Part shown: positions 11,117-15,040 of the stretch, piece by piece
Numbering within the stretch: position 1 is the first letter of the stretch
Layout of the letters: each line of letters opens with the position of its first letter
NCBI GenBank assembly: GCA_000004695.1
Contig: CM000153.2
Coordinates: forward strand, 3,680,001-3,744,000
DNA length: 64,000 nucleotides
DNA from: Dictyostelium discoideum
Lineage: Eukaryota
Direction: 5' to 3'
Position numbers and translations under genes: made by a program
Notes under the pieces: model-generated
Databases searched by the model: none
Told to the model about the DNA's origin: nothing
The model's input: the letters and a program-made list of their open reading frames with translations, nothing else

Positions 11117-14100
11117 ATGGCAAGATTACAAGAAAGAGGGTCAGTAGTTAAATTGATCCAATTTAAATTGTTTTCATTTTTATCAAGTAGATTTGGTATG
11201 CTATTTTGCATAATTGGGGTGTTTATAAGTTTCAATACAATACTTCAATTAGTTCGATTGTATACAGATAATTCATTTATTTCATCAGGTATGTTTTATC
11301 ATCAATAAAATAAAAAAAAACTACTAATTAAAAAAATAAAATCATTATGTATTAACTTTTATATTTTTTTTTTTAATTCAAGATATTTATAATCAAAAAC
11401 CAACTTTTTTTTCACAATCATATTGGGAAGATAATGTAGGAGGTAAATCATATCAAAATATATTATGTTCACAACCAATTGATATTGTATATACATGGGT
11501 TAATGGAAGTGACCCTAAATTAATTAAAGAAGTTACAGAATTAAAAAGATCAAAACGTGATCCATTAAGTATGTATATATATATTTTATTATTAATATTA
11601 TTATTATTATTATTATTATTATTATTATTATTATTATTATTATTTATACTTATTGTTTATTTATTAAAAAATTTATTTTAGTACCAGAATGTCAAGGTAA
11701 ACAAACACCAGAAAAAGATAAATGTTATAGAGATGATAATACAGCAAGTAGATATGTTGATAATCAAGAATTAAAATATTCATTAAGATCAATTGAAAAG
11801 TTTGCACCATGGATTAGACATGTATATATTGTGACCAATGGACAAGTACCAAATTGGATCAATTTATCGAATCCTAAATTATCGATTGTTACACATCAAG
11901 AGATATTTGCAAATAAATCACATTTACCAACATTTTCATCACCATCGATTGAAACTCATCTTCATCGTATTCCAGGTTTAAGTAAGAAATTCATCTATTT
12001 GAATGATGATGTTATGTTGGGTCGTGAAATTTATCCAGATGATTTTGTAACTCAAAATGGTGGTCAAAGAGTTTTCCTAAGTTGGCCAGTTCCAAATTGT
12101 AATGATGGTTGTCCAAATAATTGGATAGGTGATGGATTTTGTGATAATGCATGCAACGTTTTCAATTGTGAATTTGATGGCGGTGATTGTGATAATTCTA
12201 CAGGTACTGTCAAAACACGTTGGTGGAATCGTGGTAACAATGGTGGTGGTACCACCACTTCTACTACCACCACATCAAATACAGGCAATTTAAATGGTTT
12301 AACTTCAAATGATAGATTAAAATCATATTGTTCAAGAGGTTGTCCAGATTCATGGGTTGGCGATAAACATTGTGATCGTATGTGTAAAAATGAAGATTGT
12401 GGTTACGATGCTGGTGATTGTGGTGTTGAACTTATGTTTACCTCTATGAAAGGTTATGAAATTAATAAAAACACAAGTATAATTAGTTTACCCGATGGTA
12501 CTCGTTCAGTCTATTTCAATCTTTCAACCTTAATTGGTGAAGGTACAATCACTGATGGTTCACATGATAATGCAATTTTAGTTAGAACTGCAACTATCTC
12601 TCAAAAATATAAAATTATGACTTTAACTTTTCATAGAGATAAAGAATTTCAAAATATTGCAGTTTCAATAACTTATGAAATTACTTCAAAAAAACAAAAA
12701 TCAATAACAACAACAACTACTAATTCAACAACTAATTCCACAATAACAACAATTGATAGTTTAGATAAAGGTAATACTAATAGCGAACAAGAAGAATTAA
12801 TAACAGAATCAATTGAAAAGAATTTTAATATAACTTTATCAACAAAGGAAGAATCATCCTCCTCCTCATCATCATCAATATCATCAAAAGAAAAGAAAGT
12901 TGATTTAGAAAGTGATAAAACAAATCAACAAACATTAATAGGTACAGGTGAAGAATTATCACCATCACCAACAGTTGAATCAAATAAAGGTAAATCAAAT
13001 TTTTCAACAAAAGCTATAGATCAACTTGGTGATGAAATAATATCACCACCAATTGGCTCAATTGAAGATGTTGAAGGTTTACCACCAGCATCAATTAGAG
13101 ATAGAGAAGAGATTATTACAGGTAATGAACAAGTTAAAGATCCAAATAATGAAAAACAACAACAACAACAACAACAACAACAACAACAACAACAACAACA
13201 ACAACAACAACAACAACAACAACAACAACAACAACAACAACAACAACAACAACAAAACCAAAATAACCAATTAACATCATCAGAAAATAAAGATCAAAAA
13301 GATTATAAAATAAATAAAAAATTATCAAAAAATGATCTTGATACAGCTCAACAACAAGAAGAACAAAAAGAACAAGAAGAACAAAAAGAAAATAAAGAAA
13401 AAATGTTTGATTTAGCAGATACATTAGATAAAGAAGAACTGGAAAAAAAATGGCAAGAATTTTATGACTCTGTTAAAAAGAGCCAAGAAAATTCGAATTT
13501 AAATGAAAATGAAAATACAAATACAAATACAAATAGAGGCATTTTATCAATTGAAATTGATAATAGTTTAGATTATAATGATCATTTACAATTACATGAA
13601 GAAAAAGAAAAAGAAAAAGAGGAAAATGAAAATGAAAATAAAAATGAAGAAGAAGAAAAAGAAGAAGGAAATGAAAAAAATTATAATAATCAAAATGATA
13701 ATTTTAAATTAATTAATCAAAATGATAATATAATTTTAAAAAATAATAAATTTAGCGTAAATAACGATAATGAAGATAAAGATGAAAAAAATAAAGATGA
13801 TGATAATATTGAGAAAATTTTAAAAATAAAAGAAATCGAATTAAGAGAATATCAAGAACAATTAACAGAACAAATGGAACAGGATAGAAAATATAGAATT
13901 AATAAAGAAACTGAGAATAGAATGAATCAAGAGGGTGAAATTTTCCCATGGGAGGAGTTCACACCAATCGATGATGGTAATCAAATTAATAGTATTAAAT
14001 CAAAACCAATGAATAGAAAACCATTGGATATGTTTGGAGATTCATTAAAATTTGTAAATAGATTATATTCCAAAGAGTTTGGATCATCACCAAGAAAAGT

Positions 14101-15040
14101 ACCGGCACATATGCCACATATGATTGATGTTGATGTTATGTACGAAATTCAAGCGAAATGGCCAGCTCAATGGGACGCAACGAGTTCTCATAGTTTAAGA
14201 CATCCACAAGATATGCAATATGCTTTCTCTTTCTTTTATTATTTAATCAATAAGAAGCAAACCGTTGATGTTGATAAACTTTGGAAAGATTGGGATGGTG
14301 ATCGCGACAATGTGTTGAATGATAATGAATTGCGTACTTTCTCTGTCAACGTTTATAATGTACCACTAAAAGTTGGTCAATTTGATCAAATTAAAAATTA
14401 CTTTTATCATATTTGTATTCAACATAAATTACTCACAAATGTTGAACAGGGCATTGATATAGAGGCTACACTTGAAAGATTGAATAGAAATCATTCTGCC
14501 GATGCTCCAGATCCAAAAGATAGAGAGTATTGTCCAATCACATTGGATGTAATCAAATCTGATAATAAAACAATGGAAGATATAAAGAAATACTATTCTA
14601 AAAAGCAATTCTATAAAACTACTCTCGATGGTACCGATGAAGTTGCTTTCCTTATGATTGATAATGATTACAATGTTGTGCAATCTAAACTTGATGGAAT
14701 TCGTCAAAGACGTCAAAAATTCATTTGCCTAAATGATAATATCGATCATGCAAGTCCAAACAATTCCAAGGTTGTACAAGTATTACACAATTTTTATGAT
14801 TCTCTCTTTGCATTACCTTCTTCCTTTGAATTACCTCCTGGTCAATTCAATAATTTCCAATACATTGAAGATTTTAAAGCTGATGTCGTAGAAATTCGTA
14901 CTAAAAATTATAATAGTTATTATTTCATGGTTTCTGTTTCATTAGCTTTATTATTTATCCTATGGAAATGTAAATGTTCAACTTCATTACACAAATCAAA
15001 ATTTAAAAAAGGTTTACCAACAAGAATGAGTGTTCATTAA
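11117..15040 (+). CDS. UDP-GlcNAc:lysosomal-enzyme N-acetylglucosamine-1-phosphotransferase alpha/beta-subunit homologue (GNPTAB/Stealth family). Exons: 11117..11288, 11383..11568, 11682..15040.
   Basis: N-terminal TM anchor. Stealth CR1 (IDIVYTWVNGSDP). CR2 (RYSLRSIEKFAPWIRHVYIVTNGQVPNWI). CR3 (HLPTFSSPSIETHLHRIPGLSKKFIYLNDDVMLGREIYPDDF). Two Notch/LNR-like repeats (CPNNWIGDGFCDNACNVFNCEFDGGDCD and CPDSWVGDKHCDRMCKNEDCGYDAGDCG). CR4 (RKVPAHMPHMIDVDVMYEIQ...HPQDMQYAFSFFYYL). An EF-hand (DWDGDRDNVLNDNEL). A C-terminal TM (YYFMVSVSLALLFILW). The match to human GNPTAB is strong. A large low-complexity insert between the Notch repeats and CR4 includes about 45 Gln. Confidence 0.9.
13164..13258 (+). 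repeat. (CAA)n microsatellite encoding about 45 consecutive Gln inside the GlcNAc-1-phosphotransferase gene.
   Basis: Direct reading. A perfect CAA array with an occasional CAG at its edges. Confidence 0.9.

Follow-up and report, generated by a model that had tools for sequence, protein, structure and literature searches.

Domain map of a Dictyostelium gpt1 phosphotransferase points to a disordered spacer without a DMAP domain

Background

Here we describe a gene on the forward strand of a window of 64,000 nucleotides (nt) of DNA, the window being the whole stretch analysed. The gene, at positions 11117-15040, encodes a GNPTAB-type N-acetylglucosamine (GlcNAc)-1-phosphotransferase, the Golgi enzyme by which glycans of lysosomal enzymes receive their initial phosphate-sugar tag. 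We are highly confident that it is Dictyostelium gpt1, most likely the gene of D. discoideum, and that the long low-complexity stretch in the middle of its product is a disordered tether holding no DMAP domain. An earlier interpretation made from the letters of the DNA, referred to below as the sequence-only reading, had called the gene correctly and interpreted it soundly, with repeat numbers that turn out to be inflated.

The gene itself is already identified and characterised. GlcNAc-1-phosphotransferase activity was found in amoebae in the 1980s, and gpt1 was later identified by Qian, West and Kornfeld (2010), its biochemical function being "specifically proven" in the words of the review literature (PMC6994554, PMC11795075). 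D. discoideum has a single gpt homologue (PMC11795075). The end product in Dictyostelium is methylphosphomannose and not a free mannose 6-phosphate sorting signal (PMC11795075, PMC6994554).

Results

A complete GNPTAB-type core

The joined coding sequence of three exons is 3717 nt long, stays in frame and encodes a protein of 1238 amino acids (aa). Matches to Pfam families and to solved structures, together with conserved catalytic residues, bear out its assignment as a GNPTAB-type homologue. The protein matches human GNPTAB (PDB 7s05) at E 2e-162, further vertebrate structures being 7s06 and 9bgf, and the zebrafish GNPTAB catalytic construct (7s6n) at E 4.9e-157. Matches extend to Drosophila melanogaster GNPTAB (CG8027, PDB 7dxi) at E 6e-89 and to Mycobacterium tuberculosis CpsY (PDB 8j2n) at E 5.8e-27 over residues 90-249, where the Stealth CR1-CR2 core is common to both. 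A hidden Markov model search of Pfam, the check that the sequence-only reading had proposed, found all four Stealth conserved regions (CR1 to CR4) in order, and between CR2 and CR3 it found two stretches matching the Notch family (2.2e-12), which are the two Lin-12/Notch repeats (LNR) that had been predicted. All Pfam matches reported for CR1-CR4 and Notch lie above the curated gathering scores. The order of the parts agrees with that of human GNPTAB, as had been claimed. All of the following features are on the + strand.

Residues about 26-46 (core), 11192-11254, +: first membrane anchor; hydrophobic over about 18-49, with Kyte-Doolittle windows >1.6 starting at 18-31
Residues 89-108, 11475-11534, +: Stealth CR1, Pfam 7e-11
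Residues 143-249, 11750..12070, +: Stealth CR2, Pfam 2.4e-47, ungapped alignment to 7s05
Residues 257-290, 12092..12193, +: LNR/Notch repeat 1, Cys 259, 263, 273, 277, 282, 289
Residues 335-367, 12326..12424, +: LNR/Notch repeat 2, Cys 336, 340, 350, 354, 359, 366
Residues 928-975, 14105..14248, +: Stealth CR3, Pfam 1.1e-19
Residues 991-1002, 14294..14329, +: EF-hand Ca-binding loop DGDRDNVLNDNE, aligned to solved GNPTAB loops
Residues 1124-1180, 14693..14863, +: Stealth CR4, Pfam 4.2e-22
Residues about 1197-1215, 14912..14968, +: second membrane anchor, with a hydropathy peak over about 1200-1219; followed by a short basic tail

The residues that carry out the chemistry are in place. In the alignment to 7s05, S206, E210, D228 and D229 of CR2 correspond to human S385, E389, D407 and D408, and H929 and R959 of CR3 to human H956 and R986; these human residues serve UDP-GlcNAc binding and catalysis (PMC9388126). 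Conservation was counted in an alignment of 56 homologous sequences, in which four of the six (D228, D229, H929 and R959) never vary and conservation of S206 and E210 reaches 90% or more. Both LNR repeats have six cysteines with identical spacing, again invariant across the alignment.

The EF-hand lies between CR3 and CR4. Its loop, from D991 to E1002, aligns without gaps with the human loop DTDQSGVLSDRE, its ligands follow the canonical 1-3-5-12 pattern, and both of its terminal residues, D991 and E1002, are invariant among the homologues. Pfam EF-hand models gave no match at E<=1 in the gpt1 protein and stay below threshold in vertebrate GNPTAB too; the EF-hand call stands on the aligned canonical loop. 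The hydropathy peaks at the two ends of the protein, both kept in orthologues, likewise agree with the two transmembrane anchors predicted earlier.

No trace of a DMAP domain

The sequence-only reading had left open whether a DMAP-like fold survives in the spacer of this protein and had suggested a search with DMAP_binding. We find no sequence evidence for such a fold. Six dictyostelid proteins, comprising the isolated middle region of the gpt1 protein and five full orthologues, were searched with the Pfam family DMAP_binding (PF06464) and gave no match at E<=10; the same model scores 3.6e-11 on shark GNPTAB, which served as the control. A Hamartin match at E 1.3 in these Pfam searches was judged spurious. 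Profile-profile comparison gave the same answer: with a DMAP profile of 15 homologous sequences, hhalign assigned a probability of 0.2% to the D. discoideum middle region and 0.1% to an alignment of 7 dictyostelid sequences, the left-out Capsaspora control reaching 82% (E 1e-5). Finally, the DMAP signature G[DY][IL]TxKG[YF] occurs in 15 of the 56 homologues, all of them with a CR1-CR2 spacer of at least 126 aa, and is missing from the gpt1 protein and from every amoebozoan-type protein with a linker of ~36 aa in the same alignment. Thus, the DMAP and spacer-1 modules tend to co-occur.

The sequence-only reading had passed over the short spacer-1. Only about 36 aa separate CR1 from CR2 in gpt1, and the vertebrate spacer-1 domain GlcNAc-1_reg (PF18440) has no Pfam match in the gpt1 protein, compared with 3.9e-17 for the shark control. 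Residues 102-140 are identical to the 39-aa linker PKLIKEVTELKRSKRDPLIPECQGKQTPEKDKCYRDDNT of D. discoideum XP_638036 as printed in PMC9388126. A 29-aa portion of this D. discoideum spacer was used to build the engineered human enzymes S1-D and S1-S3 (S1S3), the latter being hyperactive (PMC5415318, PMC11418123), and the spacer was also placed in the crystallised zebrafish construct (PMC9388126).

The spacer contains folded parts and a disordered tether

The sequence-only reading had put about 600 aa of low complexity where metazoan enzymes carry their DMAP and spacer domains. A long low-complexity spacer is indeed present, but the non-conserved low-complexity sequence comes to about 350 aa in total, 316 at residues 509-824 and 36 at 456-491; the larger figure had lumped in an Ig-like domain and a conserved segment at 825-902. 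The whole distance from the end of LNR2 (367) to the cleavage-type site (901) is 534 aa. The glutamine run put at ~45 uninterrupted residues is likewise shorter, at 33 (612-644). The parts of this region, all on the + strand, are as follows.

Residues 368-455 plus last strand 492-508, 12425..12847, +: Ig-like domain (Ig_GNPTAB), from the structure model, the human alignment and orthologue annotation
Residues 456-491 (36 aa), 12689-12796, +: T-rich insert, splitting the Ig-like domain ahead of the final strand
Residues 509-824 (316 aa), 12848..13795, +: low-complexity non-conserved spacer with poly-S, Q33 and E/K/N-rich tracts
Residues 612-644, 13157..13255, +: (CAA)33, a perfect repeat encoding 33 uninterrupted Gln
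Residues 825-880, 13796..13963, +: long helix and FPWE motif, corresponding to the alpha subunit's C-terminal end
Residues 898-902, 14015..14029, +: site-1-protease-type motif R898-K-P-L901/D902 (the slash marks the cleavage position), aligned at the human RQLK/D alpha/beta cleavage position

An AlphaFold2 (AF2) model covering residues 366-905 gives a beta-sandwich for 368-455 and 492-508, with a predicted local distance difference test score (pLDDT) of about 95. This Ig-like region is 59-62% identical to that of non-Dictyostelium dictyostelids, and the alignment to human GNPTAB extends into it, through residue 466. Its label, PF26737 (Ig_GNPTAB), comes from the annotation of the D. firmibasis orthologue. 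A Foldseek search of the AF2 model against the PDB returned just weak Ig-like sandwich matches and none at E<=0.001, which confirms the Ig domain of the predicted structure and nothing beyond it. The T-rich insert, with a pLDDT of about 60, carries two N-x-T sequons and is seen only in D. discoideum and D. firmibasis.

The spacer proper has none of this order. Residues 509-824 are of low entropy and consist of tracts made of 3- to 27-nt DNA repeats. Against other dictyostelid genera the segment is 13-20% identical, with over 150 gap columns, and even D. firmibasis is without a long uninterrupted Gln run at the equivalent position. In the AF2 model residues 515-605 are disordered (pLDDT <50), and the remainder contains isolated helices, one of which is the polyglutamine tract. 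Among the 56 homologues the segment from the Ig domain to the cleavage-type site ranges from 51 to 963 aa in length, and vertebrate GNPTAB has a roughly 180-residue unstructured segment at the same position (PMC9388126). The spacer is best explained as a fast-evolving linker with neither conserved sequence nor fold, and as such it is ordinary both for Dictyostelium proteins and for that position in the family.

Order returns ahead of CR3. The helix at 825-869 is modelled at pLDDT 76-84, and K836, E839, L840, Y857, N860, E862, E864, P875, W876 and E877 are invariant among dictyostelids; the Trp of the FPWE motif is present in 48 of the 56 homologues. To our knowledge the role of such a helix-FPWE segment outside animals has not been studied. 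The site-1-protease-type motif R-x-L-x/D is similarly widespread ahead of CR3: of the 56 sequences, amoebozoans included, 50 have the Arg, 49 a Leu at P2 and 55 an Asp at P1'. Pro at P2 (RKPL/D) is confined to the gpt1 protein and the T. lacteum protein, D. firmibasis having RKLL/D. A literature search on site-1-protease processing in Dictyostelium returned nothing relevant. In human GNPTAB the alpha subunit can occlude the catalytic pocket with its C-terminal part, where the helix-FPWE segment lies, and the precursor becomes active on cleavage by site-1 protease (PMC9388126).

Gene model

The window has a GC content of 22.4% and very AT-rich intergenic DNA, as in Dictyostelium. The open reading frame (ORF) list alone would place the gene at 11831-15040, without CR1 and the first anchor; the sequence-only reading had departed from that view by proposing three exons, the first encoding a transmembrane segment, and this proposal has held. 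The elements of the model, all on the + strand, are listed here.

11117..11288, +: exon 1, with the start codon, a short cytosolic N-terminus and the first membrane anchor; in-frame splice model
11289..11382, +: intron 1, 94 nt, GTATGT...AAG, 88% AT
11383..11568, +: exon 2, with the luminal stem, Stealth CR1 and the first half of the short CR1-CR2 linker
11569..11681, +: intron 2, 113 nt, GTATGT...TAG, 96% AT
11682..15040, +: exon 3, the rest of the protein; TAA stop at 15038-15040

The peptide ...KRSKRDPLIPECQGK... of D. discoideum RefSeq XP_638036, printed in PMC9388126, reads across junction 2, and in a DNA alignment the GT and AG dinucleotides stand at identical positions in the D. firmibasis locus. 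The three-exon model and its junctions, as judged from these comparisons, are therefore supported. Against D. firmibasis, exon 1 is 87% identical at the nt level, with the ATG in common, exon 2 is 90% identical with zero indels and exon 3 is 96% identical, the exons together differing by just one 6-nt in-frame indel, whereas intron 1 shows 62% identity and 14 gap columns. An N-terminal block, KLIQFK..SSR.GM..C..G, is kept among dictyostelid orthologues. In orthologues the membrane-spanning N-terminus is continuous with CR1, including homologues derived from transcripts (Trinity/MMETSP assemblies) and one homologue on a 4.2-kb contig.

An (ATT)~21 microsatellite at 11582-11644 makes up nearly all of intron 2, and its D. 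firmibasis counterpart is also an ATT microsatellite.

Neighbouring genes

Upstream of gpt1 lies a CCDC22 homologue (8596-10416, +; E 6e-150). Its N-terminal match begins at profile position 34, which makes an upstream exon likely. Downstream lies SRP68 (21625-23163, +; E 1e-100), and the gene order CCDC22-gpt-...-SRP68 is common to the window and the D. firmibasis locus; in D. firmibasis a Crystall_3/Membrane_bind gene lies between these neighbours. Two ORFs (40932-42704 and 42963-43808, +) carry the N- and C-terminal domains of a gamma-tubulin complex component (GCP) and are probably a single intron-containing gene. At 57676-60354 (+) an FNIP-repeat protein is encoded, 892 aa long; its exact product is on GCA_054883475.1, contig CM142510.1, from which it follows that a near-identical genome is public. 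An M28-family peptidase ORF (24076-25269, +) and a RhoGEF-domain protein of 971 aa (50680-53595, +) are unconnected with gpt1; the exact product of the RhoGEF ORF was not found in the protein collection.

Among the homologues, the annotated protein of Planoprotostelium fungivorum shows WRKY, MULE and transposase-like matches in roughly its first 400 aa, before the GNPTAB part, which probably reflects a gene model fused to a transposon.

Discussion

Comparison with known systems places the protein beside one enzyme in particular. With D. discoideum gpt1 (XP_638036; PMID 20170636) it shares residues 102-140 and the overall architecture, features at the level of the organism agree (22% GC, D. firmibasis as nearest relative, a neighbour with FNIP repeats), no difference can be demonstrated, the residue match covering the published linker, and the two are almost certainly the same gene. 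The assignment to D. discoideum draws on the GC content, on D. firmibasis as the best database match (74% identity, with the gene order conserved) and on the collection having no D. discoideum entry. With vertebrate GNPTAB it has in common CR1-CR4, the catalytic residues, two Notch repeats, the Ig-like domain, the EF-hand, both anchors, the FPWE motif, an RxxL/D motif at the cleavage position and a long unstructured segment upstream of it. It differs in its 36-aa CR1-CR2 spacer, which is without GlcNAc-1_reg (about 184-250 aa with PF18440 in vertebrates), in lacking the DMAP interaction domain, in a disordered spacer of about 316 aa of homopolymer tracts compared with about 180 aa, in Pro instead of Leu at P2 of the cleavage-type motif, and in the final glycan mark, which in Dictyostelium is methylphosphomannose. 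The Drosophila enzyme also lacks DMAP and has a short CR1-CR2 spacer, but it carries a single Notch repeat, its CR2-CR3 spacer is short and it lacks a site-1-protease site (PMC8913297), unlike gpt1 with its two Notch repeats, Ig domain, very long spacer and site-1-protease-type motif. Bacterial Stealth hexose-1-phosphate transferases such as CpsY, which make capsular polysaccharide, have no Notch, Ig or EF-hand insertions and no two-anchor topology.

Several observations weigh against the identification as D. discoideum gpt1 with a featureless tether. The exact 1238-aa product was not found in a collection of 15 billion proteins, and no D. discoideum entry appears among the database matches to the protein. 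The 39-aa linker is identical in D. firmibasis as well, so it does not discriminate between the species, and we rejected it as a species marker. AF2 also places two consecutive helices, at 671-698 and 703-725, within the spacer, with a pLDDT of about 68-87.

This helix pair is the starting point for a different interpretation, in which a divergent hydrolase-recognition module specific to the lineage lies concealed in the spacer and the helices are a functional analogue or remnant of DMAP. A block within the spacer, MFDLADTLDKEELEKKWQEFYDSVKK, is kept in D. firmibasis, and DMAP1 of GNPTG, the sole solved module of this kind, consists of just two antiparallel helices (PMC9388126). The block is however absent from four more distant dictyostelids, the helix pair at 671-725 has no similarity to the DMAP profile, and AF2 commonly over-predicts helices in E/K-rich sequence, as it does for the polyglutamine tract in the same model. 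With no Pfam match in any of the six dictyostelid proteins at a permissive threshold, hhalign values of 0.1-0.2% set against 82% for the control, and the signature missing, we consider a hidden module improbable.

The same enzyme might be thought to act on another acceptor, for example by placing GlcNAc-1-phosphate on serine of Dictyostelium cysteine proteinases rather than on N-glycan mannose. Dictyostelium makes GlcNAc-1-phosphate-serine, according to references listed in PMC1285062, and Stealth enzymes take varied acceptors. Against this, the whole GNPTAB accessory set (two LNR, Ig_GNPTAB, EF-hand and two anchors) is conserved along with the catalytic residues, and gpt1, the sole gpt homologue, is the GlcNAc-1-phosphotransferase that makes the N-glycan phosphodiester intermediate (PMC11795075), and a gpt1 null is reported to lose methylphosphomannose from its N-glycans, its GlcNAc-1-phosphate-serine being unaffected; a different acceptor is thus very improbable. 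It strains belief still further that the three-exon model is wrong, with exon 1 foreign to the gene, or that the locus is a decaying pseudogene whose low-complexity middle reflects relaxed constraint. The absence of the exact product from the protein collection speaks for such a reading; against it, all 1238 codons are open, the membrane-spanning N-terminus is joined to CR1 in orthologues including transcript assemblies, the exons are 87-96% identical to D. firmibasis compared with 62% and indels for intron 1, and the folded domains are strongly conserved.

The mechanism can be outlined as follows. The N- and C-terminal helices would anchor the enzyme in the membrane, and the four Stealth regions, split by the accessory insertions, would together make up a single catalytic domain exposed to the Golgi lumen, as homology with the solved structures indicates. 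Its catalytic residues indicate, and the literature establishes for this gene, that the enzyme moves GlcNAc-1-phosphate from UDP-GlcNAc to the mannose 6-OH on high-mannose N-glycans; in Dictyostelium the product then becomes methylphosphomannose. The spacer at 509-824 and the insert at 456-491 would serve as an intrinsically disordered tether, swollen by a trinucleotide-repeat expansion of the sort that the AT-rich Dictyostelium genome tolerates.

Because no DMAP module is present, low protein-level selectivity is expected, and we infer that the gpt1 enzyme picks its glycoprotein substrates with little regard to the protein that carries them. Lang, Couso and Kornfeld are said to have found in 1986 that the Dictyostelium activity is without the high-affinity recognition of lysosomal enzymes seen in the mammalian and Acanthamoeba enzymes, which would agree with the missing DMAP domain. 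A minimal construct stripped of the accessory domains is active but does not discriminate between lysosomal and non-lysosomal glycoproteins (PMC9388126).

The segment ahead of CR3 raises an evolutionary question of its own. The breadth of the motif counts, from Amoebozoa to vertebrates, makes it conceivable, although we regard it as rather doubtful, that the switch combining autoinhibition with proteolytic activation is ancestral and older than recognition through DMAP and the gamma subunit, and that it has since been modified or lost in D. discoideum and T. lacteum, the two species with Pro at P2.

Conclusions

The discovery value of this analysis is small: published work already covers the gene, what its enzyme does and its short spacer-1, and with that spacer a hyperactive human enzyme has been engineered for use in enzyme replacement. 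Its useful outcomes are a corrected domain map, which separates an Ig-like domain and a pre-cleavage segment from what had appeared to be one giant spacer, and a clear negative for DMAP. The wide conservation of the site-1-protease-type motif beyond animals is a side outcome. The DMAP negative fits the view that it was holozoans that added the protein-selective tagging of lysosomal hydrolases.

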